From contig CM120642.1 of assembly GCA_051362555.1 (NCBI GenBank), positions 23,374,001 through 23,438,000 on the forward strand: a stretch of 64,000 nt of DNA. Direction: 5' to 3'. Each line of letters begins with the position of its first letter. The stretch's first letter is position 1. Below the pieces are notes generated by a model. That model was not told the origin of the DNA, did not search any database, and was given only the letters and a program-made list of their open reading frames with translations. The DNA is from Lingula anatina. Its lineage: Eukaryota > Animalia > Brachiopoda. A program made the translations under genes and the position numbers. Shown piece after piece: positions 2,685 through 62,576 of this stretch.

Positions 2685-5600
2685 CTATTTTCTGTTTGCT
2701 ATCTTCAACAGTTTTGTATCTAACACTTCCTTTTCCCTTCTTAATGCAGATTTTGTTAACCTTACAGCCTCCATTTGGTCTACATTTTGCAACACAAAGA
2801 CTTCCCCAAAAATGGAAATAATGTGAAGCAAGTTCAGATCATTCCTGTTGTACTTGGCCTTCATGAAAAGCAGTTTCTCCTTCACATCAGCCTTCTGACA
2901 AAGCTCGACAAGCTTCATTGGCCAACCATTGCCTGTTTCTAACAAGTGGTTTTTCACTAACAGCCCCAACCTAATTCTGTCTTCTTCAAATGATTCTGCA
3001 TTTGTCTTCACTTCAGCACTAGATAATCTTACAAGAAACTTCTTTTTACTTTCTATGACTTCAAAGGTGTCCCCACAGCCTCCGAGTACGTCAACCAAAT
3101 CTATATTTTCATCACGTGTATATTTCATGGTTTTGTAGATTTCCATCTTTTTCAACTGCCTCTCTATATCTGCCTGTTGGGCAAGCACTTCCAGGCTTAT
3201 TGGCAATATGGTTGCTGTTACATGACTCTTGACTAACTGAGTCAAGAGCTGTTTATCTCTCTCATATGTTTCCTTTTGTATACAGGCCCTTGTAAACCTC
3301 AAAGCCCCATTGTCATCTAATGCAAAGGTTTTACCAAGCCTTCTAAAAATTGTTCTCAATTCCAAACCAGCACTGCATTTCTCTCTCATGAGCTTCAGTT
3401 GCTCCCTGATGTCAGCCTTCTCCTCAAGCTGGCTCAGTGTCATGGCCCCATATGAGTCCTGCTCCCATCTAGATAAATGCTGTTTCACCAACTGAGCAAA
3501 ATACTGATAGTCTTCATCTAACAACTGTCCAGTCTCCTTCAACCTGGCTCCAACAGGTGGCTCATGATTCATGGGGAGAGTTTTCACTGTCACTAAATTG
3601 GCTGCATCAACTTTGTTATTTCCATTAACCACCTGGTCTTGTGGTTTTACATAGGGAACCATTGTCACTTTCTTCTTTTGTTTTACATCACCTATACTCT
3701 GTTTCTCTACTGTAGGTGTTTCATCAGAGTTACCTTTACTTTTTCCACCATCAAAACCAAGACCCTGTGATGGTACATTGGAAACAATGGTAACTTCACT
3801 CATGGCATTTTCATCATCTTTCATTTGTGCTTTGCGAGTAGGTGGCGCAGCAGCTTCATCTTTTTCATCATTCAAATCGGGGCCATGAGGTGTTGCATGT
3901 GCTTTAAGCTTTTCCTCGTCTTTCATCTTGTTCTCCATATCAGGCACTGCAGAAACTCCCTGTTTCCTTCCAATAACATCTTTCATCTGCACAAAATCAA
4001 CACCTTTCACTTGGCTCACCAAGAACTGGTTGTTTTCTAAGAGGTGATACTTCAGCTTAAAATTCTTTTTATGTTTGGCTCTTAAGCTTAGAAGGATACA
4101 TCTCACAGAAGGCACTGTACCCAAGGCTGAAAGCAATACTGGCTCCTTAACTTTTGATAAGTGTTCAACTATTTCCCGTGTCAAGATGTATTTGATATTT
4201 TTCATTTGCACAAAATCAATATCTTTCACATGGCTCAACAAGAACTGGTTATTTTCTAAGAGGTGATTCTTCAGTTTAAAATTCTTTTCATATTTGGCTC
4301 TTATGCTTAAAAGAATACATCTAACAGAGGGCACTGTACCCAGTGTACTAAGGGATACTGGTTCCTCCACTTGTAATAAGTGTTCAACTATTTGCTGAGT
4401 TAAAGTGAATTTCTCCTGATCAAAAGCACTATGATCTCTGTGGGTTTCATTTTTGAAACCAGTCTGTATTTCACTCCCAGTTACAATGCAGGCCTCCTTA
4501 ACATCAAAAACAAATTGGCTTGGACCACCTGGGCTAACAGGTAATGCACTGGGCTGAGGGGCATCAGCAGACTGACCTGGGCTCTCTGATAACTGCACAC
4601 AGGGAATCACTGTCACTTTCTTCTCTGGTTTTATATCATCTATCCTTTGTTTCTCCACAGCAGTTGTTTCAGCGGCTTTACCTTCACTTTGTCCACCATC
4701 AAAACCAAGACCCTGTGATGGCACACTGGAAACAACAGTAACTTCCCTCTTGGTATTTTCATCATCTTTCATTTGTACCTTCACAGTAGGTGGTCCAGCA
4801 GCTATATCTTTTTCATCATTTAAATCAGAGCCATGAGGTATCATCCATGGTATCTTTGTAGCATGTGCTGCATCAACTTTGTTATTTCCATTAACCATCT
4901 GGTCCTGTGGTTTTACATAGGGAACCATTGTCACTTTCGTCTTTGGTTTTATATCATCTATCCTTTGTATCTCTTCTTTAGGTGCTTCAACAGAGTTACC
5001 TTTACTTTTTCCACCATCAAAACCAAGACCCTGTGATGGCACAATGGTAACTTCCCTCTTGGTATTTTCATCATCCTTCATTTGTGCCTCCACAGTAGGT
5101 GGTCCAGCAGCTTCATCTTTTTCATCATTTAAATCAGAGCCGTGTGATGTCATGCATGACATCACTGTAGCATGTGCTTTAAGCTTTTCTTTGCTATTAT
5201 TGTTTTTCTCCATATAAGGCATTTCAGAAAATCTAACATCACATTTCCCTTGTGTCTCCATAGCAGGTGCTGCTGAAGCTTCAATGCCAGTTCTTCCATC
5301 TTCCCTGTCTTCCTCCATGACAAGTGCCCCAGCAACATATGCTTCATCGTTTTCAAAGTTTAAACCAGAGCCAGGGGTCATGAATTGTTTTATTGTAACA
5401 TGTGCCTTAATCTTTTCTTCATCTTTCATCTTTTTCTCCAAAGGAGGCACTGCAGATACTCCCTGCATCCTTTTGACATCTTTTATCTGCACAAAATCAG
5501 CACCTTTCACATGACTCAACAAGAACTGGTTATTTTCTAAGAGGTGATCCTTCAGCTTGAAACCCTTTTTATGTTTGGCTCTTATGCTCAGTACAATACA

Positions 5601-8600
5601 TCTTACAGAAGGCACTGTACCCAAGGCTGAAAGCAATACTGGCTCCTTCACCTGTGATAAGTGTTCAACTATTTGCTGAGTCAAGATGTATTTCTCCTGA
5701 TCAAAAGCACTATGATCTGTATGGGTTTCATTTGTCATACCAGTCTGCATTTCACTCCCAGGTAGAATGCAGGTCTCTTTAACCCCTAAACCGAAATGCC
5801 TTGGGCTAACTGGTAATGCACTTTTTCCACCACCAAATCCAAGACCCTGTGATGGCACACTGGAAACAAAGGTAACTTCCCTCTTGGTATTTTCATCTTT
5901 CATTTGTGCTTCCACAGTAGGTAGTCCAGCAGCTTCATCTTTTTCATCATTCAAATCAGGGCCATGAGGTGTCATGCATGATATCTTTGAAGCATGTGCT
6001 TTAAGCTTTTTTTCAGCTTTAATCTTTTGCTCCATATGAGGCATTGCAGAAACTTTAACATCACATTTCCTATGTGTCTCAACAGCAGGAGCTCCTGAAG
6101 CTTTATTGCCAATTTTTTTATCTTCCCCGTCTTCCTCCATGACAAGTGCCCCAGCAGCATCAACTCCACCTTTTTCATGCTTTTTATACTCAACCTGTAT
6201 GTGTGCCCTTTTAGCATCATGAAACTGGCTTGGGCCACTTGGGTCAACAGTTAACATACTGGACTGAATGGTAGGCTCTGTGGCACCTTCAATATGGCTC
6301 AAGGTGACAAATGGTGTCACATTAGCACAATCTGTATCCTCTGCTTTGTTCAAACATACAGCTTCAGTGTTCCAGATCTTTACCATCCTAAACAAATGTC
6401 CATGTTCTTCAATGCACTTGGTTAATGTGTAAGATGGTTCATGTTCTATCACCAAGAACAAATGACTCCCTACATCAGGATGCTTTTTCAAACAAGACAA
6501 TGTAACTGGGGACCTAGAGGTTTGCAACACAGATTCAATACTTTTGGCCAAATCAGCATGATATTGGTTGTTCAGTGCACTGGATACCTCTGTCAGTGTG
6601 CCCAACTGACCATACTCTTCCAACATTGTACAAGAAGACGGTCTCTCAACAATAGCAGCATTTTCTCCATTCTGAACAAGAGTAACATTAAGCATATCTT
6701 GTTTTGCCATTCCTTCTAATTGTGGTTTTCCTTGAAACATTGTCCTAGAAGGTGAAAGATCAACTACTGAATCTTCTGCATTCTTGACAAATGCAAAATC
6801 AAGCAAATCTAGCTGTGATAATTCTTCTGATGATAGTTGTCCTTGTTTCACATCAGAAGCTGGAATATCAACTACTGCATCCCCTGCAGTCTTGACATAT
6901 GTAATACCAAGCATATCTTGCTCTGCAAATTCAACAGATGATGGTTGTCCTTGTAGCACGATATCAGAAACTGGAAGAGCTACTGCTTCATCTTCTCCAT
7001 TCTTGGCAGTCGTAACATCAAGCACATCTTGCTGTGCTAAGTTACGTGATGATGGTTGTCCTTGTAACATTATATCAGAAGTTGGCAGCTGAACTACTAC
7101 ATCTTCCCCTTCCTTGTCAAGAGTAACATGAAGTAAACCTTGTTTTATCATTTTATCAAAAAACCTTTGCCAAGAAAAGTCACCAAATGACTGGCCTCGC
7201 AGCTGATCAGCCAATCTCTTCACACTAGGGGTTCTGCTAAGTTCTTTGAAAGAAGCAGTGTTTGTAGGTGGTTTGTGCAGTTCTAGTACTGCAATAATAC
7301 AGTCAAGTAGTTCGTCTTCACTTGCTTTGTGTAGATATTCCCTTCCATGGTCTTCTTCTCTTTCTTCTTCCCCTTCCAATGCTGCAAGTTTCTTCAATGC
7401 ATCTGAAGCTAAGGCACTACAAGGTTGAATTGTCTTCATTGTCTCTCGCAAAGTTTTTATATAAGTTTCATCAAATACCCTAGTATCATAAGGCACCAAG
7501 TATGTAAAGACCCCTGTTTCTGGTGCAAATGCATTGACAGTCACAGTAGTGGTATCCTTTCTTTTTCTTTCTTTTTTCTTTTTTGTTCTCTTGCTTGAGG
7601 ATGTTTTTGGATTAACTGTATCCATTTTTTCCAACCTCTCAGACCCATCACCAGCACTCTCTGTTAATGCTATTTCAGTCATAGTCATATCTTCCAATTC
7701 ACTGATTTTCTCCATATTTCTACTGTCATCACCACCAGCTATTGCATTATCGCCATCCGGGCTTGCAGCTATACTGGCAGTTTCCACCAAGTCGTGAAGC
7801 TCTTTCAACAATGGACTCACATTAGGGAGAAATTCAAGGGAACCTGAAACCTTTTGTCTCACTTCATTTATCTTCAGGAGGATTGGATGGGTCAATGGGT
7901 GCTTTTTTGTGAATTTCATCTCATGTTCAAAGATGGTGGCTGATACCATGCGTCCACTCTCTACATCAACTTTCCAAGTTGCTCCATATCTGCACTTGTG
8001 AAAGGTAAGCAGGAGAACCATAGCCCAAAGATTGTCATATTCACATGGTAGAGCAGTAAATCCCTCAACCCAGGCAGAACTTTTACTACCGGAAACGAAA
8101 TTATAGAATACCCCATAGTGTTCCTGCATTGCGGTATCACAAGAAAACCCTATAGGGTTCCTCCAACAAGGAAGAGCCTGGCACACTACTCCTGGGGTCT
8201 TCAAAGGAGCCCCTGCTGTACTGAGAATTGTCCATATGATTCGGTATGGCTGCTTTGGGCTGCGTAGTTCAGTTCTACTGCTAAAAGTTTCATTGCTATG
8301 ATCAGTGTTTTTGGAACCATTTTCTGTATCGTCACATTCACTTTCTTGCTGCTCTATGTTACTGGCATTCAATTCTTCAGGCATTTCTACTAAGAAGGTT
8401 CTGTTGCCTTCCCCAAACTGATATAGGAGGTGAGCTTTCAATGGGATATCTCTTATAACTCCTCTGTTTGATGCTTTGATGGCATTACTATAATCTAAAA
8501 TTATATTCCCTGAAGCAATAAACCTCACAGCATCAGGATCTGCAATCTTTTTCAAAATTTGAGTTGCAAAATCTGGTTTCTTCAGCATTATGGTTGGGGG

Positions 8601-9385
8601 ATTAACCAATGCCACAGAGGTTGTAGGATCTACACCAGCCTTCTTCATTGCTTCTGTCAAAGCTTTTCGTCTAATACCTTCCTTGTCTTGCTCTCCTTCA
8701 TGTACTTTCCCAAAGGCCACCATTGGGCTAAGACCAGCTGTTAATATGGTTTGAAGCAATCCCATATCTTTGGAAAATATGCTAAGCCATTCTTTCTCTG
8801 AGGACAAATGACCAGCTACACCTTTCCTTCCTTTTCCCCACAAAACCCTCCTAGAAGTGTCCTGACTTTGAATCTTGCCCTTTTGATTTAAAGCATCCAA
8901 AAGCATCTGCACATCAAGAGCATTCTTTGATCCCTCTGGTAAAAATGACAGCAAACATGTAGCAAGATTTTGCACAAGATTTTCAAGAAGACCCAGCCTC
9001 TTGCTATCCACATGGTACATATGACAGAAGTCTGCTCGTACATTTTTATGAGTATTTCTACCTTCCTGCCCTCTTCTAGCAGTTTTAAGCCATTCTAGGA
9101 ACATTTGCCTCAGCATAATAGGCTCACTGTAGTAGCCCCTATCAAACTTGTTGCGAGCACTGGAGCTAAAATGCAAAGACTGGATGAACTGTGCATCTTC
9201 CTTCAGAATCTTCTTTGTTGGCATGGTGAATGGATCTTTGGCTTGTAAGGATGCTGCCATTATAATGCCATCACAGGGACAGTCAAAAAGAACACCAAAC
9301 ATGATGACACATGTCAGGTGTAGATTCACAGGCAGTCGCATGTCTAACATACCCAGGGTTGTGATGCTGGCATTTTCATCATTGT
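2685..9385 (-). CDS. 6.7-kb terminal coding exon of the helicase gene (HA2, basic NLS-like patch, repeats, LOTUS-like domains)
   Basis: The 2221-aa ORF extends upstream to an acceptor AG at 9387-9386. Phase 1 matches the upstream exon. Contains KRTKKKKERKRK and internal duplications. Confidence 0.9.
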
Positions 9386-12300
9386 CTGTAAATTGATAAA
9401 TTTATCTAAAGAATTCACTTTTTTTTTTGCAAAATTTTTGTAAATATAATTAAATGTCTAGCACTTCCAATCAACATTCCATAAAAATCAGCACATATTA
9501 CAAGACAATTAACTAACTAATAATCTTTGTTACCTTCGATGGCTCCCAAGTTTGCCAGCATCTCTATAGCAGCATATATGTTGTCAATATCTGGTGGTTC
9601 TATGGTCTGCAGAAGTAACTCAGTTGGGCGAAGCTCTGGTGCTATTTTCTTGCCTGAAAACACATTCCACAATAAACATTCACTATCTTATATATCTTAT
9701 TTTAATTTCAATGCCACATATTATAAAAATTCAACCGACTGTCATGTTCCATCAAATATAACTCAGTTACTACATCAGCTGTACAACTAAACATATTTGC
9801 GTGAACAAATTTTCAGTTTCAAAAAAATCTACTCAACCAGAGAGGCAGAAAGCTCAGACTTTGCATTTTCCGAGTTAACTAATATAATTGTTATCATTCA
9901 CAGCACCACTGCACTGAGAATGATGGCTAAGGGACCATTCCCAGAGACTATCGTCTAACTTTGGATCGACCTATCTCCACAGGGATTCTTACTAAATTGC
10001 CATCAACTTAACCGGCTTAATTGACTGTCATGCCTAGTAAGGCTGTTAGGGGGTAATTAACTAGCAGAGACCGAGTGTGCATGAATAATTACCCCCTAGA
10101 TGATCGGTAGGCGTGACAGCCACTTAACTTGATAGCAATATTTAGTGTGGACCCAACTGGAGTTAGACCAATCCTGCTGGATCGATCTAGGGATGGGAAC
10201 CCAGTCTATTGCTAGAATATTATTTATGATAATCAGAATTGCAGTGAGTACAAACATTTTATAGGTTCTCTCAATCGTTACCAAAACAATGAATACAAGT
10301 TACTATGCCAATTACTCATCAGGCCCATAGCCAGCAATTTCAAGGGGGGGGGGTTCTTTTTCTGAAAAAGTGGACCTTTTACCGAAAAATCCCAATGTAC
10401 TTATGTCAAATTTTACCCAGAGTGGACCTTTTTTCAGCAAAAAGGGGGGTTCTTTCGAACCCCCAGAACTCCCCCTGGCTACGGGCCTGCTCATTATTGC
10501 TCAGCATTTCAGCAAGTTGCAGTCTATAACTAGTAGTTATTTCTCTCTATCTCAATCTCTCTCTATATATATTTAAAGTAGTTTGATGAAGGGTGCTCAT
10601 GCAGAAAAAGTCATCAAAGACAAAAAATGGGTTTTATATACAAAAAATGTGGAAAAAGATCTCATCAGAAATAGAAATGTACATGATGATGATGATACAC
10701 TTGCCTATAAATTTAACTTCCAGCACAATTTTTTCAAGTGGAGAAATTCTCATCTGTGGCATATCGTACTTGGCCTGCATGTCATAGTGCTTCTTTGTGA
10801 ACATTCTGATACAAACACCCGGAAAAACTCTGCCAGCTCGACCTGTATATAATAAAGTAATCCTTGACGTTGTTGTTCATCAACAGGTTCCACAAAACCA
10901 AAATTATACAGTCAAACACCACTAAGGCCCTTTTCACATTGAGTGGTATAGTTTTCCATATCACACCAGTAATTCCGATTGAAACTATGGTTGTAGATCG
11001 ATCAAAATCCGCAGGGAATCTTGCTGAATGGCTCAGCATAGAATACAGAAAAGCTGGTAATTATACCAGCTAGTACAGTGGAAGCAAGAAGAGGTATGTT
11101 AATCTGCTAATTTTATTGCATTCAGAGTTCTCAGCAAAGTTGATTTAATCTACATAGACTGATTAAGAGTAACAAAAACAAAACTTTTTTTTATTATCTA
11201 ATGAGAGGCAGTTAAAAAATTTGTCATAATTACATGTTAGAACCAGTTATGTGAAAAGTGCCTATAACTTCACTCAATGCTCACTTCTTTTATCTAATAT
11301 ATATATATATACAGCCATACAGGTTATGAGATTTTCTTCGTCTGAAAGGTCCTTATTCATTTTACATCATAAGCGTGAATATATTAATGAATACATCCTA
11401 TTATAAGCTACAAAATTACAAAACCATGCCCCCCAAAATATGATGAAAGCTGTTTGGCATTCTGTGACTATCTCATTAAAAATCTACCATTAGAATCAAA
11501 TTTCATACTGTTAATTAAATTTGTGAATTACCCTTTCTTTGCTCCATGGAAGCCTTGGAGCACCACAGAGATTCCAGCATTCTCATCTTGTACTTAGGGC
11601 GATAAACTATCTGTTTGCGTCTCCCAAAATCCAGCACAACACGCACTTTAGGAAGTGTCAGGGAACTTTCTGCCACATTTGTAGCAATGATCACATGTGC
11701 CACATCAGGAGGTGGTGGTTGGAATGCCTGGAGCTGGTCTTCAAATGGAATCTGAAAAAAAATCATATAATAATCATAATAAAATCCTAAAATCCACATT
11801 GGCAGCATATCTGAATAAAAAATCAAAGCCATGTTTCTATGAGTATGACTTACACTCCCTTAAAAAAGACTTAAGTTACTGGTTATTTCAAAAGACTAAA
11901 ATCACAATTATAACACATGACAAAGTTAATCAATGTATCAAATAACTGCCTTTAATAATAATTATTATTATCATTATTATCATTATTATCATTATTATTA
12001 TTATAGCTTCAGTGAACTATTCCTTAATCATTATCAGTGATATAGCTTCCAATTTCCATTGATTTTACATTTGTAGTAACCATGTGTGATATATGACATA
12101 AAATGACCTCTATAACTGAGCCCTAAACTGATTTTATAAGTGTGTATGTGTGTGTGTACATGTGTTATGAAGACATCAATTTGACCCTCCTGGGAGCATA
12201 AAATAATTGTTTATGGCACATAATTATATATCATCAAGTTTTGAAATGGAATTAATTTGTTTTATTGTTGTAGTAGCTAATTTCAATGAAAAATGTTAAG

Positions 12301-27300: not shown

Positions 27301-30300
27301 TTATAGCTAGTTTTGAAATAAGGAGTATCAGTGGCCCCCCAAAATTAAAGGAAAAATTATCACAGACACTTACCATGGAATGTAAAGCAAACAACTTGAT
27401 GGGGCATTTCCAGCCTCTGTGCTTTCTATCCTCAAATGGTAGTAAAAGGTCAAAGAACTCCTCAATAGTCACCTTGCCTGGAAAACAACAGTACCTGAGG
27501 CAAATGAGACAATTCACTACATCCAGCTAATACAAAATTAAATAATAATAGTAAAGTGATACACTAAATTAATTTTACATTTATGGGATAAAATGGTTCC
27601 ATTTGTGATACAACCTTATTTAAACTGATTAATAAAAGAAAGACAGCTGAAGGTTTCCTATTTGCCCCCTCCAGCCCCCATGATACCTTCCCTACATAAA
27701 TATATTTCTTTGCCTGATTAGAGATTATTATTTTGGTAAAAAAACTAACATCATCCTTTTATATATTATCAATATGCAACATTGATATTATTACAAAAAC
27801 ATTTTGTTGGATATATTCTAGACTAACAGAGCTCATTTAAGCTCAATGAAGAAAATGATAAAGCCTATCTAATTTAGAAAGATTAATACCATATGGTAAT
27901 CAATTTATACCCATGTTATGTGTGGTAGATAATTAAAAATTGGTGCTGACTATGCTGTTGATCATTATGTAATATTGCATCAAAATTGAAAAAAAACTCC
28001 TATTTGCACTGCCATTACAAATGTTATGAAAAAAAACTGTGTAACTTATTATTTTACAAAAATGAATCTTAGGATTGACATACAGCTTAAATAAAAAACC
28101 ATCTCTATTGGATTATCATTTTTTTTTGAATTTATGAAATTATTTGTGAAATTTTCATTTTTCTCACTCTGGCATTTTCAAAGTGTGAACTTATGCTGGT
28201 TACACACTATACTTATTTTTTTTTATATCTGTGTTGCCTCTTGTACATAATTAAATTTTGGTGTTGATTTTGCCAATAAGTATAATGTATTATTGCATCA
28301 GAATTGACAGTAGCCTATTTTGTGCATCATTATTTTCAGATTTTTGTCTGTACATTTGACAGTTTTGATGCCTTCTTCTTCCTTGATCAAACTTTGACAT
28401 TTTGTCGTCTCCCAAGGTAAAACAATATAGCTTAAGTCTTTATTACAACACAACACAAGCTTATGGCATGTTTTTTTTTATGACAACTGTCCATGTGTTG
28501 TCATTACAACACCAGGCCTTTTAAACACATTTACCAACACTACCCGCAGTATATCTCCTGAGTAGAGGCTATTCACCTGGATAGCCTCATTCCCTGAAGA
28601 TGTCCTGATAGACATCGAAATATTGGAGGTAAAACCTATCTCAATATTAGCTGTTGACTGAAGAAAAAATCACATCATTCTGACCAATCAGAATTTTCTC
28701 ATATAAGTTTTCTCACTTAAATTTTTTTTTTTCATTTATAGTATTTACTTCATCAATGGCAGTGTAGTACATGTTAAAATTCCAGACAGCAAAATCATGT
28801 GTGGGTTGCAATGAGTCACTTTTTAAATGTACTTGCTGATGTCACATCTGTTAAAATACATGTGATATGAATGTGGAGTTACGCATGTAAATGCTCACAT
28901 CAAGATATCTGAACTTACCAGGTAGAAAAACCAAGATGCTCTCCCCAGGTACTGCGGACAACCTGATCAGAGTGAGAGCCAGGTCATATTCTAGATCTGT
29001 GACAGAGCTACCTTTGGCCAGCCTCTTTCCTACCGCATTGTACAAATTAGCATCCTTCAACTCCAGTAAAAACTCTTTCATGGGCTGGTCACTGAAAAAA
29101 GGTATGATATTTTTGAAATGGTCAGTATGGCCAAAATGATACCTTTGTATGGTCAAATGTCCTCTTAAAAAACAAAAATGCAATTTAGAAGAGTTAATTT
29201 TAAAATTGTTTTTTAAACAATTATTCTACTTGGAGCCGTATTTATGTAATAGGGTACATGTATTCACATGTATATGTAAGTATATAATAGTACATTGTGC
29301 CTAAAGTATAGTAAAAGTAAAGCAAGAGTATATAAATAGATGTAATGAATATGTATAGCTGGTGTTAGTGCCCTTTTTGTGTCACGTGGGTCATGTGACC
29401 CTCTACTATAAAAAGCTGTTGGCACGTAATTCGAGAGAGATACACCAGAGATCGGATGTGAAGAAAGTACTGTATTTTATGTAAGATCAGTCGGAATAAA
29501 GACTCTGAAAGGACAATACATTTGTTGTCGTGCCACGGTTGCATTTGGTTCTAACAGTCAATCTGGCAAACAATAGGATAATAAGTAGAATGGTTAAACT
29601 TTTCTTTTGTTAGTATTAATTGATAGACCCTCTTACATACTAATTAATGGCATAATCACCACCAGGGTTTTCAAATTGGTAAATGAAAAGATGTTTTTCA
29701 GGTTAAAAAATACAAGGACCTCAGATATGAAATAATGTTCTTACAAACCGCGTGCTGAGTGATCAAGTGCAACTACAGAAAGGCTGGAATGCACCGTATC
29801 AATAAAGGCTTATGCCTATTTCAAATATTATATTGCTACTTATTATCTATTCTTAGTTTTTTTTTTCATTCAGGGTGACTCCTGAATCATAAAACAAAAA
29901 TTACACATATATTTAACAGTTATAAAGAATTTAATACCTAGGATCATCTGACGTCAAGTAGTGTGCTGGGGTCGTCTGGTTGTACTTCATGATCCGAGTG
30001 GCGAGTTTCACTTTCTGAAATGATGTCAGGTCTGAACCAAACCTCTGGTTAATGTTCTCCAGGTAGACCAGCTCCACGGGATATCTCTTGGTGCCAACAA
30101 ATATAGATGCCTGGGACATCAGTTTGATTTCCTCTTCTTTGGCAAAATACCTGAAGAAAAATAAAAAAAAAATAATTGAAGGCAAAATATCTAAGATAAT
30201 ATTTAGGAGAATATAAATTGAGAGAATTTATGGCAAAATACAAGCAACATTATATTAATGAGTGAAAATATCAAGGAGAACAGATGAGGAAACCAATAAA

Positions 30301-33300
30301 AATATCTGGGAGAATAAGTGGAAACTGTGGCAACAGTCATTTCTAAAAGATAAACAATAAATTCAATGGATCTGTGGCAAAATAATCACTTTTCATAATG
30401 AAGAAATTGACCGCTTAAACTACGTAAAAGAATGTGTGGTTGAAAATCAAACATGGAAAAAAATTAAACTGACAAAAACGATAACACTATAAAATTTCAA
30501 TTTTCCCCTGCTCTGTCAGACATACTTCAAGAATAAATCCCCCTGGATAGTGGCTGACATGAGCACTATTTTGATGTCAGGATTGTTTTGGGCGAGTAGT
30601 TTAATGATCAGACAGAGCATGTCTGATTCCAGTTCTCTCACATGGACCTCATCCAGTATTAGGTGGGTGAAAGTCTTCAGCCTGGCAGGGTCATGAACCA
30701 GGGCCTAAAACAAACATGAAAACTGTAGTCATCGTCGTTGTCGTCATAGTAGTAATAGTCATAAGACTGAATAATCATTTCCCTCCATCTGCTACAGTCA
30801 TACATTTAACAACTTAAAGACAAAACTTTGGCATGAAATGCATTATTCTTGAAGAATTGCACACCGTTTCTAAAAAAGTCACATTTGTCATCCATCCGAC
30901 ATCTATTTATCTATTTACTCATTCATTTGTTCATTCATTTCCACAAATTAAAACAATATACAAATTTTAAAATTTAAAGGTTGAATTACTTAAAAGTATG
31001 ATGTAAAATAAATCTGCTCTCTTTTTCAGATATAATTCTTCATACCCTGATGATAAACCCTGTTGTCACAAAGAGTATGCTGGTGCTATTGCTGGCCTGG
31101 TAGTCTTGGCCTATCTTGTAACCTACTTCTGTCCCCAATGTGCTGTGCCTCTCTCTCGCCACCCTCTCTGCCAAGGTTTTGGCAGCCATACGTCTTGGCT
31201 GAGTGACAATAATACTGGGCTTTCTGCCCACTCCTCTGTAATAAATAAAGATTATTTTTATTTATCAATAAAAACCACAACATCATTTGCCTTGTGTTCA
31301 TGATAATCAATACAGACTACTCTAAGCCAGCCTGTTTCTAACAAATAGACAATTCACTGACAATTCCAATCACTCCTGTCACATCTGAAAATATATCTGG
31401 CAAACAACCTAGACAAATATAATAATAATAATAATAATGTAAACAAACACAAAGTACAAGTGAATCAAAATATAGAATTACTTCACATTTCAAAAAGCAC
31501 TACATAAAGGTTTAACATGCATTGTGTAACTTTTCCCTTTGGTAATCCTCTCCTTAATTACCTTGTCCGGTAGTCATCCAGTATAAACTGTGGCACTTGA
31601 GTGGACTTCCCAGACCCTGTCTCCCCTTCTATACAAGTGACACGATGAGTGGCAATATGCTCAATCACTATGTCTCTGTACTTCAATATGGGCAGTTCCT
31701 CAATACCTGGAAAATGTATTTTCTTCAGTGAAAACAAAGACACTAGTAATGAGAAACCTGAGCATCCATTTCAACTATTTTGACCAAAACTGTCTACAGA
31801 TAAAATGCTTTCCTTCTGGCAAATGTAATAAAATTCTTACATTTCTAGCAATGACAAAAATGTTGGATCAAGTGAGCAATGTGTTTCTCGAGATGCTGTT
31901 TAATTGCAGGATTTACTATAATTAAGCTAGATCTTAGCCTACAATGGAAAAGACATATTTGAGATCTAAACTAAATCCCCCATAGTGAACAAATTACTTA
32001 TGAAGTCAATTTGTTCGTAAGTCTAAGGGCTCATTCCCATTGCAAACATCATTCTAAGTATATCAATCTAACTCTGCAGGGACTGCTTATTTTTCAGCTA
32101 TGTATGGTCATGTGTCCTGAACTTGTCTAATTTGTGTTACATTTAAACTTAACTGCTGTGTGGGTTTCCTTTGGAACATAATCATAAAACTGAAACCACT
32201 TGTCATAGTATATATTCTGAAAGGCTCTTTCAAGAAGAATTGTGATGTTGTGCAAAAGAAAAATATTTCAGTTTACGTAACATAGCCAGGATATTTGCAG
32301 ACCAGTTCAGGACACATGACGGTATAAGCAACAAAGATACAGCAAAACTAGAACAACATTGAAAAGCACCTTCGGAGTCAGGATGTAATATATCTTGAGG
32401 GTCTTCATCAAATTCTCCTATATCATCTGCAAGTAAAGCTTCCTCTTCCTCAGCTCCATCTATACTACAGTCTTCATTCCCATCTGCCTCCTCAACAAAA
32501 TGGAATTTGTTCAGACAGTCCCTAAAGATTCTTTTCACACCTGCACTGAGGAGGCTGTTGTTTTGGACAATGTTCCAAAGTTTCCCCACAACTTCTTGGC
32601 TCACTACTTCTTTTCTCCCTGTTTGAACATAATAAACAAACTTCAATGTTGTTGTTCAGTAACTGGACCTTGTACTTTCATCAAGGTTTTAATCATATTT
32701 TAATTCATTCCTTGTATATTTTCCACAGATGAAATTTCATACGGGGTATATTCAGTTAATGCAGGGAGTTCCAGCAAAAACTGGAAATAAATACTGCAGC
32801 ATTATCAAAAATAATTATAAAAAAATTTGAATATCTTGTGAGCATTATTTAGTATCCTTGAACACATGTACATGTAAATAAGAAAATTACTTAGATAATA
32901 ATATCATTCATGGAATCGCCAACAAATTACTCATTTGTCACCAAATTAATAATAATAATAATACCAAACTTGCTTTATTCTTACCCTCTGATATCAGATG
33001 GATCTCTAGAATAGACTACAAAATTAAAGGCCCCTGTCTAGTCATGTAACTACCCACCCCTAGCTGCCCCTTAAACAGGCACTCATGATCAGCTACAGAG
33101 GAGGATAAATTGTGAGGTTGGGCATAGCTAGGATATAGTTCTGTATGTTTTAGGGCATTACCACTCAGCTGGACATATCATATGGAGTAGGTCTGAGGCC
33201 ATACTTCACTTGCATCACATAACGTAGATAGGAAAGTGTGCTATTCAACACCTAGATGTGAAATTGCCCCCTGCTTACAAATACAAAGGTATGTCTGACG

Positions 33301-36300
33301 TGAAATGCATTCTTCTTGACCAATTCCTACAGAGCCCAAAACAATAGTTTTGTAAAAGACTATTAGTAGCCAGAGAGTAGTTTATTGCATATTAGTCATT
33401 TTCACAAGGTAACTCTCTTTTAGATTTCAGCAGAAAATAGTGCAATATGACGTCTTAAACTGGGTTCCCATCCCTAGATCGATCTAATAGAATTGGTCAA
33501 TCTCCACGGGGTCCCTTGCTAAATGGCTTAGACATCTGGGACGCCCACTAAAACTGCTAAACAATAGTTAATTATCCCCTATCAGCCTCAGCAGGCATGA
33601 CAGACATCTAAGCAGCCAAAGTTAATTGCAATTAAGCGAGAATCCCCTTGGAGTTAGTTCGATCCAAAGTTAGTACGATGGGTCTCGAAATTTTCTTTTA
33701 GAGTACCTTCAATGATCCAATGGTAATAAAGTATAAAGTAGCGTCCAATGTATATATCCTTGGGTTCTGGGAACTCTTCACTGATTTGCAGGAACTGGGC
33801 AAGGAAATGGGTCCAGTCTACCACTTTCTGTATAATAATTAAAAATAATAAGAATGACAAAATGCAGATACATGTTAAAACTGGTATATGAAGTAAAACC
33901 CAAGTACCACGAATGACTTTCTCTATTTTTACCTACACAACAGGTTTTGTTAATTGTGTTTATAACTCCATTTAATGGTCAAAGACTCAGAAATAAGCAA
34001 TAACCCTGATAGAATATATAAATTATTTTTGAAAACAATTGTAATATTATCAATGAAAGCATATATTTGTATAGTTTAACCTTTTTTTAACTCAAACCTT
34101 TCCCCAAAGAGTACAACTGACAAACATTCCAAACCCTATCAACAATGCAACACACATGTAATATACATAATTATCTTACTATACAGTACATATACATGTA
34201 CCTGAAACCATGATCCGCCTATAATAAGACTCCTCAGGACAGGGTTCACTTGTTTGTATTTGAACTTCTTTTCAGGGGCACAAGTTGGTTTTGTTCCCCC
34301 ACTGAAAGTCATGGCTGCCAGAATCAGAAACTCAGTTGGTGTAATATTGAATTTGTACTTTTGGTTCAGACACAGAAGATGGTTCAAGGCATATGCAGAA
34401 AAGGCATCTTTGGTGGCCATTGAATCAAAGAAGCTTGGGCCTCCTAAAATTACAAGAGGGTTAAAAAAATTACACCTTAGAGAAGACTTTTAAATTAATA
34501 ATTATATAGCCACACACTATGTTCATACACATTGTCAGAATTTAGTTAACATAGTGATTCCAGATTAATGTGACAGGCAAAACTACATACATTAATTGAT
34601 AAATGTGTGTTTTGAGAGATATTAAAATGTACAACTTACGAAGTATTTCATTTTCAACTATGTATATGAAATTAATACACATTATTAATACACATAAAAT
34701 ACATCAAACTTCAGTGAAAGTTACAAGTACCTGAACCTAATCAATTTTTGTTTCATTCCTTTTTTGGACAAAAAATCAACTCTATCATACAGTTAAACCT
34801 TCTAGTGATGCACCTAGCTGCCCCTTAAACAGGCACTCATGATCAGCTACAGAGGAGGATACATTGTGGGGTTGGGCATAACTAGGATATAGTTTCGTAT
34901 GTTTTAGAGCATTAATAATTCTTTTCATTCAAATCTCCAGGAATATAGCAGTGCAACTTCCAAAGTTTAATAATAGTAATATCAATTAGAGAATCAGAGA
35001 GGCGATACCGCCTCCTAGTATTGTACCACCAGCTGGAGTAAGCACATTTGTATGAAAAACAAGGGACACCATCTCCAGTGTTGTGCTTGACAAGCTCTAC
35101 CAAATGCAGTTAACAAGAGTTCCAATTTTTTGTTGAAAATTACAATTTATAACAAAATCATGGGGAAAAGGAAAAGGTCAAATCCAAATTTGTGAAGTGT
35201 GGTTCATGGCAAAAAGTACATGCTGGTGGTACTAATAATAGCAGCATGAAGAAAAAGAACAACAACAATAACACTGGATAAAATTTTACAGGAATTGGTA
35301 AAGTGACTAAGGACCAGCTAGCTGTGCAAGTTTCCAAGAAATGTTTATCTGTTAAGCACGTATGTAATAAATATCATATAATAGTATTCTTTTTACTCAG
35401 GAGTAAAAAATGATACACATCAGAGATCCTTCATATTTAGAATTTGTGATGCTGGCAACCCGTGACATTGGCCATTATACATGGAGCAGTACACTTAATT
35501 AGCGATACATTCTGTACCAGTAATACTCTGAGGGGTTCTTAATGTATTATTACACCACAGGCTTTTTTTCCTTTTCACAAGTTCTTCTTTAGTTCACTTT
35601 TTGATGTATACTTTTAGGAATATATGAGGCCTGCTGCAAAATTGCAACAAATTTGCTGCAACATTGCTACAAATTGGTATCAGCAATAAAATTTTTCTTG
35701 CAAACTCATTGCTGCAATATTGCAGCAAACTTTTCATTTTGCTAAGGGTAGTTAACCTCACTGACCACACTGTCGTTCGTATGTGGAAGCTCCATTTAGC
35801 GGACTCTAAGACTGGGTTCCCATATCTAGATTTATCCAACAGGATTGGTCTAACTACTAACTTTTGTGCACGCTCAACCTCCAGTAGTTAATTACCCCCT
35901 AACAGCTTTAGTAGGCGTGACAGACATTTAAGCTGCTTAAGTTGATAGCAATTCAGTGAGAATCCCCTTGGAGATAGATTGATCAAAAGTTAGTATGATA
36001 GTCTCTGGGAATCATCTCTTAGGTTTAGATAGATACCGGTAAATGTAACAGCCAGGGCCCAGTTTTATAAAGGACGTTTAGCACTAACCAGTGTATAAGC
36101 CTAACCAGTGGATAAATTCTCCTAATACCCATTAACTAAAAGATGGTTAAATTGTTTTTCATATACAGTGTTCAAACAGCCAATCAGTTAGCTGGCCAGT
36201 GTTTAACTGGATAAAATACTTATTTAAAGGTGAATTAACTAACGGACTGTTTAAACACTGTTTATAAAACAATTTCATTTATCAGGGTTTAGGAGAATTT

Positions 36301-39300
36301 ATACACCGGTTAGAGTTAAACACTGGTTAGTGCTATACGTTCTTTATAAAACTGGGCCCAGGATGTAAAATAAAGTTGACAGTCTCTTAAAGTGTACCTG
36401 TATAGACTCTATCAATGAATGAGCAAAAATGTGCATTAGCTTGGTAATTGGATCATAAATGAAAATTATCAAACACAAGCCGGAGATCTTCATACCATCA
36501 GCTTACAGCCAATCATATATTATAAGAGGGTCCTGGCTGCTATACCACTTAGCCGTCATTGAGTAATAACAACATCTCACATCAGTCTGATGAAGGCTTA
36601 TGTCCAGGTTGGCTGTAATGTAACAGTATGAAGCATTTTTGGCTTGAGTTTGATAAATTTCATTTATGATGTATCAATGAAGTTTACTGCTCACTGTAAA
36701 AAGGGCCATGGCACTATATACTACAACAGTGGTAGGTATTATTTACTTGTGAGTGCACAAGGGCTACAGGTCTGTAAATCCTCTCCCAGCTCACACATCA
36801 CACGATCAAACAGTTTGTACCGTGTCTCTACTGAAATGCTGTCTACCTCATTCACAGCAGGCAAATATGGAAGTGGTGGGCACATAACCTGAAAAAAAAA
36901 GGACAACATATTATAAGACATAATGTAGAAGACACTGAGAAGTTTACCATTAAGGATCTCTTCTCCTCCCTACAAAGAAAAACATAATGAAAGCAAACAA
37001 GCAAAATCAAGCAATTTCCCAACCCTTGTGCTCTACGTATACTGCACAACTTATTCAAGTTGAAGATATTTAAAGCAAATCTCGACTTCTGTTTCATATT
37101 TGCCAAGCGAGTGCAGCACAGGATTTTATTCTTGTGCATCTAAACATTAAGAAATACCTTAAATTTGATCTGCCAGTGATGTGTGTGTTTAAATAACATA
37201 AAAACGCCAATCTTCAGACATCCCCCATTTATCTTGAAATACGTCTGTATACATTTATTCTTACTTTGAGTGACTTGAATCTGTTGTCATCTGCAGTCCT
37301 TCCATACTCTGTAATCTCTTTCACTCTCAGCATGCCACACAAGACCTTTATGATAAAAACCCATTTTTATTAGATAAATTATTCTTAACTACTGGATTCT
37401 TTTTACACTCTACTTCTGAATTATAAAGAGAAAACTTAGGCTTCATTCACATGCAATGTCTATTTTCTAAATTCTATTTTCTATTCGCGGTATGTCTTAT
37501 GATCACGGTCTGTGCCCTGAATATCCCGCAGCGTAATTACTGGCAGCGCGAGCCAGTTACTATAAGTTACTATAAGTAACTGGCTCGCGCTGCCAGTAAT
37601 TACGCGGCGGGATATTCAGGGCACAGACCGTGATCATAAGATAGCGCGAATAGAAAATAGATTTTTAGAAAATAGACATTCCATGTGAACGAAGCCTTAG
37701 TGGTAAAATCAAAAATTCTTAATTATAAACAAATTATACGTAGCATTTATCATAACTGCACGTCAGCGTAAACACAAATCTGAAATACCTTCCTGAGAGA
37801 CACCACAGATCTCTCAATCCCAGGCTTTCCCATGGTCATCTCCTCAAACACAAGTCTATACCAGTAGATACCATTACGCAGTGAAAGAACACGATCACGG
37901 AGGTCACCTTTAGCTATCCTCTTCTCTAAGTACTCATCCAATTCCAAGCTGACACAAGATGGAGTTCTGTCTGCCTCTGACTTGATCCACCGTTTTGGCT
38001 TAGGTGTGCTACTGGCAACGTTTCCTGTAGCCACACCATAGAACTGTCGAGAGTACTCCACAGCTGATCTGAATCTGTCATTGGAATTCTAGAATATGCA
38101 ATGAATCAGTGTTTAAAAGAACATTACTTTATATTTTCTGAAGCCATTTATCTCTGCTGCATACAGAGAGAGGTACTATTCAACTTTCTCATAATTCTGA
38201 GCCTTGAACATTAAGAAAATTCAAAATTAGTCTAATGCTATATATATAACTGAAAATAAAAGATTAAAAAGATAAAAGATTAACTGTATCACTTTAAAAC
38301 AGTCCTCTTATAACTGTAATAAATGAATGTTTTATAAAAATTTGTGTAATTATTAGAATAGATAAGATAAAATCATATCATCAATCTACAAATGTAATGA
38401 ATAAGCACCATGCAAAGTCACACTATTAATATCTTTAACATTTTTAGTACAAATGTACATGCACATATCCATTATTATACAACAAAAAAATTAGGCACCA
38501 TCAATTCCCACACTTCGTCAATGCTTTCTAGTTTCTTTTCCTTCTCAGCTGTGAGGCTTTTGAACATCTCTACTGTTTTGATGAAACTACGGTGTTGAAC
38601 ACAAAGTGTTTCCACAAACGGTTTGCTGAAGTCATTTCCCCTCAGAATACACACATCTACCAACTCAGCATGGGATGCAAGCTTTAAAAGATACATATAA
38701 ACAGACTACATTACATGATCATTGGCTTGATCAAGTCTTTTACATGTATGTCTGCATGCACACAGAACTCCTGAAAACAATATCCACCTGTAATTTCTTT
38801 GTACTTAATAACTGTGCTACATTACATGACAGTAGCATTTTTGAACAGAACAACAGAAGGTTGTTCCCTTTACATACATGTATATCCTATTACCAAAGTT
38901 GGAATGAACAAATAGAATATTTACTCAAATCATCTTAAGATTTTGTGATAACAATCCTTTATCAATAATCAACTAAACAATTGCATACCTTCAAAAACTG
39001 AGTCACCTTTGCTGGAGTAATGACCCCAACTTTCAAAGATTTCAAGGCCATATTTGTGTTCCATATTCTGTGAAAAGTTTTATCCAGATCAAATAACTCA
39101 AAGGGTATAAATCTAGCACCTTTCATCACACAGAAGTCTGAATCATTTCCTAGGATGGCAAAAGCCTTGTCATCAGACACCATGTATTCTGCCATTACAT
39201 CATCTGCCTCTCCCTACAGTATATTACTTCCACTTGATCATGATGAAGTGCAGTTAAAACCTGTTGCTTAAGAAGCACAGGTGAAGGTACATAGTGCCCA

Positions 39301-39743
39301 TGTACAGGGTTATGTTTAGATTGATATCCATGAAATCTGTCCACTACATCTTGAAAAGATTTTGCTCGGTTGATGTCTCTTTCACACCAAGTGTCAAATT
39401 TCTGTTGAAAATGATCAAGGTCAGAGCCTCTGCCTCCATCAATGAAGAATACTAAGTCAATATTATTCTCCCAAAACTTCTGAATCAATCGCTTCATCAA
39501 ATTATCTACCAGATCATATTCACCACCGAAGAATTCTTTCCAAAAAGGGTTGATCCCAAGACCACTTGATTCAAAATCCACCAAGTCATTTATCTTTTCA
39601 GAAAGAACAGAGAAACAGAATGCAAAAAAATCAACCAAGATTTTCATGCCATCACGCTTCTTTGCTTCTGCCACCAGATCATATATGTCGGATGTAGCAT
39701 CTGCATTATGCAAGCATGTCCCCAGCAGTCCCTGAATGCCCAT
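2685..39743 (-). CDS. Large multi-exon gene encoding a PIN-like (FEN1/XPG/Asteroid/FAM120-type) nuclease + DEAH-box RNA helicase + LOTUS-like repeat protein (~3418 aa if the 1-nt frameshift near 39213 is corrected)
   Basis: Coding exons read on the minus strand with consistent phases: 39743-38989, 38681-38499, 38088-37789, 37345-37265, 36888-36747, 34443-34202, 33827-33707, 32618-32370, 31706-31562, 31235-31046, 30704-30526, 30150-29938, 29091-28919, 27477-27374, 11751-11532, 10842-10705, 9653-9534, 9385-2685. All introns are GT-AG except 10704-9654 (GC-AG). Helicase motifs run continuously across junctions, e.g. ALHSM|IPFEDQLQAF and QRKG|RAGR. Confidence 0.85.
9931..10206. mobile_element. 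Dispersed ~250-bp Tourist/Harbinger-like MITE family copy (GATCGATCTA family)
   Basis: Shares TTCCCAGAGA / GATCGATCTA / TAATTACCCC blocks with copies at 16327-16562, ~33459-33690, 35810-36019 and 52221-52446. TAA/TA flanks. Confidence 0.6.
10320..10489. mobile_element. Small TIR element (CAGG...CCTG termini, 5-bp TSD; hAT-like)
   Basis: CAGGCCCATAGCCAG / CTGGCTACGGGCCTG, with CTCAT on both sides. Confidence 0.7.
12361..12880 (+). promoter_or_regulatory. Promoter of paralog 1: TATA box and kappaB-like sites
   Basis: TATAAAAG at 12872-12879, GGGAATTTCC at 12792-12801, GGGAAAAATCCC at 12397-12408, ETS-like AGGAAG/AGGAAA cores. Confidence 0.55.
12978..15119 (+). CDS. Secreted short-chain-collagen-C4-like domain protein, paralog 1 (~310 aa), nested in the helicase intron
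   Basis: Exons 12978-13211, 13518-13647, 14120-14194, 14626-15119 (GT-AG, phases 0/1/1). Signal peptide MKLHILSVFYIFALILLLSYKAQA, coiled coil, RHKR, GGATYIRWGRSTCP...CGSLPCP...CVVCSK. Confidence 0.9.
16327..16562. mobile_element. GATCGATCTA MITE family copy just upstream of the paralog 2 promoter
   Basis: Reverse-complement similar to 52221-52446. Imperfect TIR TTCCCATAGATTATAGATCGATC / GATCGATCTAATCTCTGGGAA. Confidence 0.65.
16640..16872 (+). promoter_or_regulatory. Promoter of paralog 2: TATA box with clustered GGAA/kappaB-like motifs
   Basis: TATAAATA at 16864-16871. GGAAATATCC (16651), CAGGAAGT, GGATTTTTCC (16756) and AAATTTCCC (16811) lie within 230 bp. Confidence 0.45.
16923..22019 (+). 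CDS. Secreted short-chain-collagen-C4-like domain protein, paralog 2 (~294 aa), nested
   Basis: Exons 16923-17141, 20350-20452, 20740-20805, 21523-22019. Hydrophobic signal peptide, coiled coil, RYRR, GGATYVRWGRTVCP...CGSLPCP...CVVCTK. Confidence 0.9.
17229..20135 (+). mobile_element. Non-autonomous Helentron/HINE-like element carrying a satellite array, in intron 1 of paralog 2
   Basis: 5' hairpin GAGGCG-ATAC-CGCCTC (17243-17258) and subterminal TGTACCACCAGC (17266-17277). 3' ACGG/GCCGG microsatellite (~20030-20090) and terminal hairpin TGTACCGCCAGCG-CTAA-CGCTGGTGGTACA (20103-20132), complementary to the 5' subTIR. No ORF. Confidence 0.7.
17430..19140 (+). repeat. 146-bp tandem repeat array (~11-12 copies)
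   Basis: AAGTAGGTCAAAGGTCAATT...GATTGCCAGTATATGACTTCCTATTCAAGTTCAATAGTAACTATGGACC recurs every 146 bp. Spurious ORFs recur at a 584-bp (4x146) offset. Confidence 0.95.
24313..26246 (+). CDS. Secreted short-chain-collagen-C4-like domain protein, paralog 3 (~299 aa), nested
   Basis: Exons 24313-24543, 24843-24942, 25492-25566, 25753-26246. Signal peptide MTILDNVLLSLLATVCIL, coiled coil shared with paralog 2 (QxVLMKMVYxLQKDII), RAKR, GGAVYIRWGRTTCP...CVVCTK. Confidence 0.9.
29363..29556 (+). mobile_element. Possible solo-LTR fragment
   Basis: TGTTAG...CTAACA inverted termini with internal TATAAAA and AATAAA in LTR order. No TSD found. Confidence 0.3.
33059..33160 (+). repeat. ~100-bp dispersed direct repeat (second copy ~34812-34913)
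   Basis: CCTAGCTGCCCCTTAAACAGGCACTCATGATCAGCTACAGAGGAGGATA is shared by both copies. Confidence 0.8.
33459..33690. mobile_element. GATCGATCTA MITE family copy
   Basis: ACTGGGTTCCCATCCCTAGATCGATC start; reverse complement of the 9931-10206 copy. Confidence 0.6.
34985..35236 (+). mobile_element. Short internally deleted sibling of the 17229-20135 element
   Basis: Same 5' end (ATCAGAGAGGCGATACCGCCTCC...TTGTACCACCAGCTGGAG) and 3' GCTGGTGGTAC, with only a remnant of the repeat unit. Confidence 0.7.
35810..36019. mobile_element. GATCGATCTA MITE family copy
   Basis: GACTGGGTTCCCAT...GATAGTCTCTGGGAATC; reverse complement of the 9931-10206 copy. Confidence 0.6.
36056..36358. mobile_element. Harbinger-like MITE with CAG TSD
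   Basis: TIR GGCCCAGTTTTATAAAG...CTTTATAAAACTGGGCC extended by TAGCACTAACCAGTG / CACTGGTTAGTGCTA. CAG flanks both ends. Confidence 0.8.
37439..37696. mobile_element. Near-perfect palindromic PIF/Harbinger-like MITE (258 bp), copy 1
   Basis: GGCTTC...GAAGCC termini, TTA TSD on both sides, folds about the centre AGTTACTATAAGTTACTATAAGTAACT. Confidence 0.85.
37789..39743 (-). other. PIN-like / XPG-like 5' nuclease domain exons (Asteroid/FAM120-type)
   Basis: Motifs in order: MGIQGL (family N-terminus), ILVD, GGEY, VFFIDG, GEADD (after the frameshift), ILGNDSDF, LRGNDF. These are the acidic motifs of FEN1/XPG/Asteroid-like nucleases. Confidence 0.85.

Positions 39744-49878: not shown

Positions 49879-62576
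<12,698 letters not shown>

Follow-up and report, generated by a model that had tools for sequence, protein, structure and literature searches.

The brachiopod Lingula anatina carries a gene that is predicted to encode, in one polypeptide of 3,442 amino acids (aa), a FEN1/EXO1/Asteroid-type nuclease, a DEAH/RHA helicase and a tail of LOTUS-like units. We analyzed this gene within a stretch of 64,000 nucleotides (nt; assembly GCA_051362555.1, contig CM120642.1, positions 23,374,001 to 23,438,000), hereafter the window, whose first letter is position 1 in all coordinates given here. The nuclease and helicase core represents an old eukaryotic family, and the LOTUS-like tail has so far been seen only in the Lingula gene. 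On balance, we favor the reading that the protein would on its own unwind structured RNA and sever the strand that is displaced, as part of RNA surveillance or silencing.

Each of the three modules is known singly, whereas the fusion of a FEN-type nuclease to a DEAH helicase is unstudied. With its catalytic positions kept, this fusion is found in a glaucophyte, a sponge and a brachiopod. The locus described here contributes RNA-supported animal members, a tail of LOTUS-like units that hints at germ-granule or silencing biology, and a conserved stand-alone nuclease paralogue. If RNA is cut, the protein would fill a gap in eukaryotic RNA surveillance, with a FEN-type fold serving as a helicase-fed RNase. 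The truncated public Lingula gene model discussed below shows how such genes stay hidden.

Gene model and fused relatives

The gene lies on the minus strand and runs from 39743 to 2685 in 18 exons (Table 1). All exon phases are compatible, and every intron is bounded by an AG acceptor and a GT donor except for the GC donor at 10704, a strong consensus donor that makes intron 16 the GC-AG type. A six-frame scan shows a minus-strand open frame of 2,238 codons at 9401-2688, with short helicase and nuclease frames upstream. An earlier note on this DNA, made from the letters alone, had proposed 18 phase-compatible exons and a single protein of about 3,400 aa, which agrees with our model, although the note overlooked a 1-nt frameshift in exon 1. 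The frameshift lies at about 39211-39215, directly before the EAD motif, and because of it the assembled reading frame ends in a stop at aa 182; our protein model carries an X at this place.

RNA evidence was drawn from raw-read runs of the same species label (six of nine listed runs, with 6-26% of each run read). Four runs (X1, X2, X4 and X7) were used for the frameshift. The extra base is present in three of three reads from X1 and six of seven from X7, and depth at the site is zero in X2 and X4. Since RNA reads carry the missing base, the frameshift most probably reflects an assembly error within a short single-base run, with a rare null allele as the weaker alternative.

For the region 29900-34900, we used runs X1, X2, X3 and X8, and a splice joint was listed only if supported by at least three reads in one run. 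Exon depth is low, about 1-14 in the portion of each run read. Nearly all exon reads of X1-X3 share a single mate orientation, as expected of a minus-strand transcript provided that the libraries were prepared by a standard stranded protocol. Joints are listed at the predicted places for two of the six introns inside this region, namely exon 8-9 (663 nt, 17 reads) and exon 9-10 (326 nt, 14 reads), each in all four runs. In the first run set (X1, X2, X4 and X7), 15 of 63 joints are listed, and intronic repeats take up this list.

Two further observations concern the transcripts. Across 29938-34443, reads from X8 disagree with the window at numerous exon positions, and those from X1-X3 match almost exactly; a divergent allele, population or second copy therefore exists under the same species label. 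Also, intron 7 contains a possible alternative last exon at 32693-32780 on the minus strand, with an acceptor near 32780, a stop eight codons on and ATTAAA at 32704 and 32693. This exon would yield a nuclease-only isoform of about 617 aa, and no gene-strand reads support it in the RNA runs examined.

A HMMER search with exon 1 found 53 proteins, including one full-length fusion, from the sponge Sycon ciliatum (P0018, in a cluster with P0055 and P0056), and one partial fusion (P0044). Sycon P0055 aligns in one piece to model aa 1-1727 (28% identity, E 3e-171), and identity to Sycon by domain is 25-37%. A profile search gave eight matches among 7,989 scored candidates. These include P0060 and a protein of the glaucophyte Cyanophora paradoxa (P0062, 2,424 aa) in which nuclease and helicase follow in the same order (E 7e-23 and 1e-106). 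Single open reading frame (ORF) metagenome proteins have this order as well: in P0044, P0060 and P0063, one ORF spans the nuclease and the helicase up to motif Ib, and each protein stops at model aa 803, where intron 10 falls in Lingula. A word-based exon 1 search for longer proteins gave none among 337 candidates (up to 2,000 aa). The top exon 1 HMMER match, P0002, was dropped as a tandem-repeat artefact.

Compared with one another, the Lingula, Sycon and Cyanophora helicase cores reach 350-368 bits, which exceeds the scores of Sycon and Cyanophora with solved relatives, and the three proteins share a weakly conserved extension at aa 1400-1730. Therefore, judged by these alignments, the nuclease-DEAH proteins are one family and not repeated chance fusions. 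The earlier note had also proposed that the modules are joined in one polypeptide. Because fused orthologues exist, comparative evidence now strongly supports this proposal, and the exon 8-9 and 9-10 joints agree with it. Between exon 8 and motif I there is no in-frame Met; the first lies at aa 756.

The sole match to the start of exon 18 is the public Lingula anatina model LOC106161588 (P0001, 2,439 aa), which shares 92% identity with model aa 1051-3442 (81-99% in individual blocks). Its homology starts at exon 15, past the 15.6-kb intron, so that it lacks the nuclease, helicase motifs I-IV and the first 1,050 residues. Because half of the helicase is missing too, P0001 is a 5'-truncated gene model, which probably explains why the fusion is invisible in public annotation.

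Most other matches are stand-alone nucleases of 593-672 aa, or fragments, that align only to model aa 1-603; named sources are Mizuhopecten, Owenia, Tubulanus, Patella, Argonauta and Mya. Of the 76 relatives shorter than 900 aa, 20, several of them near-copies, stop at model aa 251-256, which is where intron 1 lies in Lingula. Eight metagenome loci (L001-L008) are intron-bearing nuclease genes nearer the stand-alone paralogue, and helicase sequence was not found in these mostly short loci. No paralogue expansion was seen. Among named matches of our shallow searches, none is a fused protein from a vertebrate, insect or nematode, and no relatives occur among 47 pattern matches in viral contigs or 42 in prokaryote genomes (one pattern each). 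In a quick tree of the nuclease module, the label "fused" takes three changes and the branches are long, and so the tree settles nothing.

The stand-alone proteins form a family in their own right: FEN/Asteroid-like nucleases of about 620 aa in molluscs, annelids and nemerteans, mostly with all seven acidic residues described below and unnamed in their sources (P0009, P0010, P0019, P0023, P0029 and P0034; loci L001-L008). Owenia has two stand-alone members; one of them, P0010, falls beside the fused protein of Lingula in the quick tree and is possibly a truncated fusion.

Nuclease, helicase and tail modules

The N-terminal module was assigned through its relatives. In Atlas, the neighbors of exon 1 are XPG_N, asteroid and FAM120C-like clusters (0.92-0.93). 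A profile of the 23-sequence nuclease family matches FEN1 (4e-7) and EXO1 (2e-6), and the predicted model of orthologue P0044 (pLDDT 76) matches FEN1 and EXO1 at E 1e-6, as well as Rad2/XPG and GEN1. The P0044 model and the family profile thus reveal the FEN/XPG fold with helical arch and H2TH/H3TH. FEN-type nucleases need Gly2 and a position at the extreme N-terminus. In agreement, Gly2 is kept in all 25 aligned proteins, and the nuclease stands at the extreme N-terminus.

Acidic positions were mapped through the FEN1/EXO1 profile alignments. Residues D38, D102, E179, D181, D201, D203 and D269 are acidic in all five fused proteins (the Lingula model and four orthologues) and in 14 of 20 other relatives. 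These seven positions correspond to the six-residue acidic core with which FEN-like domains are described in the available part of PMC5499597, plus the H2TH aspartate. Pfam gives zero matches on the three nuclease pieces scanned in the window, and the best XPG_I_2 score, for P0044, is 23.3 bits against a cut-off of 24.2. Overall, the sequence points to an intact-looking nuclease of FEN1/EXO1/Asteroid type, in line with the Asteroid/FAM120/FEN1-type domain with retained acidic motifs that the earlier note had described.

The helicase, by its motifs, is of the DEAH/RHA class. Motifs I-VI are intact in the Lingula model, Sycon P0018 and Cyanophora P0062. The HA2 region, which the earlier note had also named, follows the RecA domains and is recovered through a match to DHX36 (E 2e-7) and, in the orthologous record P0001, through Pfam HA2_C (E 0.002, under the curated cut-off). 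The best solved relative is Spindle-E for both orthologues tested: for Sycon at E 2e-68 (234 bits, with DHX29 at 231 bits), and for Cyanophora at E 5e-74 (253 bits, with DHX36 at 238 bits). The Sycon protein is labelled spindle-E by its source. Family members nonetheless score about 115-130 bits higher with one another than with Spindle-E. Because Pfam scans of exon 18, P0001, P0018, P0055 and P0062 found no Tudor family, we do not file the protein as a Spindle-E/TDRD9 orthologue. NCBIfam and PADLOC return generic helicase matches, in PADLOC nothing beyond a weak Cas3 helicase match.

The tail contains eight units of about 75 aa (aa 1899-3420) amid low-complexity repeats that are products of recent internal duplication. 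The earlier note had described about eight related repeats. Leave-out tests with hidden Markov models (HMMs) link seven of the eight; unit 1 was not recovered, and units 6-8, when held out together, were recovered weakly (E 0.07-0.24). The model of unit 3, when compared with 48,161 chains, has as its top four matches Egalitarian (Z 8.4), TDRD5 (8.3), TDRD7 (8.0) and the MARF1 LOTUS domain (7.9), with rmsd 1.7-2.8 over 62-70 residues (Egalitarian, rmsd 1.7 over 62). In Foldseek, the Oskar LOTUS domain and Egalitarian rank first. The winged helices of Egalitarian closely resemble LOTUS, according to the available part of PMC13186709. From the predicted structure, "LOTUS-like" is the best label for the tail units, and it does not imply membership. 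A Pfam scan of exon 18 gave nothing but one chance-level row.

Because candidate units in Sycon are unconfirmed and the Cyanophora repeats differ, the three-part architecture of nuclease, helicase and LOTUS-like array is shown only for Lingula. In the Sycon tail, three winged-helix-like stretches picked by eye were not confirmed: two fell within shuffles, and one was slightly above 30 shuffles at 2% probability. Cyanophora P0062 has four tail repeats of about 60 aa (aa 1853-2337) that are unlike the Lingula units; by eye, they resemble what we take to be the pattern of dsRNA-binding domains, which is unconfirmed, with no Pfam match. In Lingula, a 111-base (37-aa) unit is repeated four to five times at 6633-7152 on the minus strand, between units 1 and 2.

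Table 1. Exons of the fused gene, the exon 1 frameshift and the tail units, in window coordinates
Feature	Position	Strand	Content
Exon 1	38989..39743	-	aa 1-252; start codon; FEN/Asteroid-type PIN core (D38, D102, K115, E179, D181, D201, D203); contains frameshift
Frameshift	39211..39215	-	1 nt, assembly; extra base in RNA reads
Exon 2	38499..38681	-	aa 253-313; GND motif, D269
Exon 3	37789..38088	-	aa 314-413; helical extension of nuclease module
Exon 4	37265..37345	-	aa 414-440
Exon 5	36747..36888	-	aa 441-488
Exon 6	34202..34443	-	aa 488-568
Exon 7	33707..33827	-	aa 569-609; last part in common with stand-alone ~620-aa paralogues
Exon 8	32370..32618	-	aa 609-692; acidic linker; joined to exon 9 in RNA
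Exon 9	31562..31706	-	aa 692-740; helicase motif I, K725
Exon 10	31046..31235	-	aa 740-803; motifs Ia and Ib; donor position common to P0044, P0060 and P0063
Exon 11	30526..30704	-	aa 804-863; motif II (DEVH), motif III (SAT)
Exon 12	29938..30150	-	aa 863-934
Exon 13	28919..29163	-	aa 934-1016; motif IV
Exon 14	27374..27477	-	aa 1016-1050; motif IVa; followed by 15,622-nt intron with three opposite-strand genes
Exon 15	11532..11751	-	aa 1051-1124; motif V, start of motif VI; homology of public Lingula model starts here
Exon 16	10705..10842	-	aa 1124-1170; end of motif VI; GC donor
Exon 17	9534..9653	-	aa 1170-1210; HA2 region starts
Exon 18	2685..9385	-	aa 1210-3442 and stop; HA2, family-specific extension to ~aa 1730, repetitive tail
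Unit 1	7086..7319	-	aa 1899-1976; winged-helix-like; not linked to other units by test
Unit 2	6348..6563	-	aa 2151-2222
Unit 3	5478..5696	-	aa 2440-2512; predicted winged helix (pLDDT 92); best matches Egalitarian, LOTUS
Units 4 and 5	3978..4415	-	aa 2867-3012; 81-85% identical to unit 3
Units 6-8	2754..3515	-	aa 3167-3420

Proposed role and competing readings

Several known systems share parts of this design. FEN1, EXO1, XPG and the Asteroid-FAM120 proteins have the same fold, N-terminal position and seven acidic positions as the Lingula nuclease, but we know of none with a DEAH helicase in cis, and the Pfam XPG_I and XPG_I_2 scores of the Lingula relatives fall under curated cut-offs. Conversely, Spindle-E to our knowledge lacks a nuclease. 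DDX60, PhoH2 and Cas3 likewise fuse a nuclease-fold domain to a helicase, but the DDX60 helicase is Ski2-type and the Cas3 nuclease is HD. PIN-like_DDX60 is a weak Atlas neighbor of exon 1 (0.86). Senataxin belongs to a different helicase superfamily from DEAH. MARF1/Limkain-b1, PIN-(OST-HTH) proteins and Egalitarian resemble the Lingula protein in combining a nuclease-fold domain with a LOTUS-like winged-helix array, in the available parts of PMC2848206 and PMC13186709; however, MARF1 has an NYN-type PIN and Egalitarian a 3'-5' exonuclease homology domain, and neither has a DEAH motor. Bacterial PhoH2 combines a VapC-type PIN with a PhoH ATPase, as described in part of PMC5499597.

A precedent for the domain set of the core is in Table S1 of Matelska et al. 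2017 (PMC5499597), of which part was available. There, at least 14 Phytophthora and Albugo proteins of cluster XPG_I are listed with DEAD and Helicase_C, 13 of them also with HA2. These oomycete proteins have the same nuclease and helicase domain set, with an N-terminal PIN-like domain, but no OST-HTH is listed, and the likeness to the Lingula family is by domain list only. They are tabulated only; the terms "HA2", "Phytophthora" and "oomycete" are absent from the main text as available. The same table has a Nematostella protein with NYN, OST-HTH and DEAD. A literature search that covered few subscription journals turned up no work on a fusion between a FEN-type nuclease and a DEAH helicase. 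The suggestion in the earlier note that the architecture is undescribed thus stands in part: no study was found and the tail is known so far from Lingula only, but the nuclease and DEAH core is an old family whose domain set was tabulated in 2017.

In the mechanism that we propose, the DEAH motor would load on a 3' tail and run 3' to 5'. Helicases of the DEAH/RHA class engage a 3' single-stranded tail and travel in this direction. The partner strand would then be released 5' end first, as a 5' flap, which the N-terminal FEN-type domain would thread and cut. The tail may be a swappable targeting module that chooses targets or place. In Lingula, the array would bind RNA that is G-rich or forms stem-loops, or recruit the enzyme to bodies of the germ-granule type, and the predicted role is RNA surveillance or the silencing of transposon or viral RNA. 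We lean toward surveillance or silencing because the neighbors of both tail and helicase are RNA-pathway proteins; Spindle-E is a piRNA factor. Nothing here shows an RNA substrate or the antiviral or germline role raised in the earlier note, and such roles are candidates only. A bolder form of the hypothesis, which we regard as speculative and unlikely, is that the family is an ancient eukaryotic RNA-defence effector, sister to Spindle-E/TDRD9, that would destroy dsRNA or structured RNA unaided, with 3'-to-5' unwinding coupled to 5'-flap cleavage. Its tails would have been swapped (a LOTUS-like array for germ granules in the brachiopod, other repeats in the glaucophyte), and many animals would keep a stand-alone nuclease half.

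Several observations weigh against the RNA-unwinding and RNA-cutting reading or the gene model beneath it. The solved nuclease relatives (FEN1, EXO1, Rad2/XPG and GEN1) are all DNA enzymes, and the closest characterized nucleases (FEN1, EXO1 and SAN1/FAM120B) act on DNA. For Sycon, Spindle-E is only 2.5 bits ahead of DHX29. With respect to the tail, the winged-helix fold rests on one folded unit of eight (unit 3), for which Foldseek gives no match at E <= 0.001; Pfam OST-HTH, MARF1_LOTUS and WHD_Egal have no match at E <= 1 in any unit; and Atlas LOTUS leads score 0.85 and below (<0.9). The LOTUS-like array of the earlier note is therefore retained as a likeness in the fold of unit 3 and not as a family assignment. 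Moreover, the ZBP1 Z-alpha domain reaches Z 7.5 with unit 3, less than one Z unit from the top. By profile, ZBP1 Z-alpha gives E 0.63, and the Asn/Tyr/Trp pattern that we take to mark Z-nucleic-acid contacts is not evident in the unit alignment. The exon 7-8 joint is not listed in X1, X2, X3 or X8, where depth is about 1-3, and this splice is the remaining gap in direct proof that nuclease and linker are joined. When exon 8 was compared with the final helix of the stand-alone proteins, 39 of 100 shuffles did equally well, so no link was found. Finally, the single copy seen and its weak expression would suit a housekeeping gene no less than a defence gene.

Three other explanations compete with this reading. 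The DNA-directed nuclease relatives suggest a genome-maintenance enzyme, a fused equivalent of SAN1-senataxin that would unwind R-loops or G-quadruplexes and cut a DNA or RNA flap in the nucleus. DHX36 and DHX9, which score close behind Spindle-E, act on DNA as well as RNA, and winged helices are often DNA-binding. SAN1 (FAM120B) is a FEN1-family ssDNA exonuclease that depends on the RNA/DNA helicase senataxin, although these are two proteins that act in trans in DNA cross-link repair, as reported in part of PMC6030175. We consider this explanation improbable, though to be taken seriously: the tail unit finds its best structural matches among RNA-pathway domains, and a family that looks patchy, with lineage-specific tails, would better fit conflict systems than core repair. 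Less probable still is a housekeeping factor for RNA processing or decay, or a scaffold with a nuclease for a narrow cellular substrate, that has no defence role. The single locus, its low and steady expression in the RNA runs examined, the PADLOC result and retention from glaucophyte to animals all suit such a factor, whereas the lack of a fused vertebrate, insect or nematode protein among the named matches of shallow searches, the divergence from Sycon noted above and the fast-changing tail speak against it.

The last alternative concerns the gene model, and we regard it as very unlikely. Exons 1-7 and exons 8-18 would be two transcription units, or exons 1-7 would mainly yield a stand-alone nuclease of about 620 aa. 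Besides the unlisted exon 7-8 joint, read-through from exon 7 stops 17 codons on, intron 7 contains polyadenylation-like hexamers, the stand-alone relatives match model aa 1-603 only, and the public Lingula model has no nuclease. That model also lacks half of the helicase, however, and hence is truncated. Moreover, phases match across the 1,088-nt intron 7, no Met lies ahead of helicase motif I, and orthologues hold both parts in one ORF.

Neighboring sequence features

Intron 14 contains three paralogous genes nested on the opposite strand (12963-26243, plus strand). Their last exons (14574-15116, 21471-22016 and 25716-26243) are cysteine-rich and 55-66% identical, and their first exons look like a signal peptide and coiled coil. 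They have no Pfam or NCBIfam match and resemble, we presume, invertebrate "short-chain collagen C4-like" proteins. Two tandem arrays, one repeating every 146 bases or so and the other about every 160, are located at 17413-19143, inside the second nested gene, and at 42789-43886, respectively. Directly upstream of the start codon of the fused gene, at 40110-41565, is a tandem duplication of about 712 bases (90%). A self-complementary element of about 267 bases occurs in two copies (37432-37701 and 51048-51315; 95%); it is abundant in RNA reads and is probably a MITE-like repeat.

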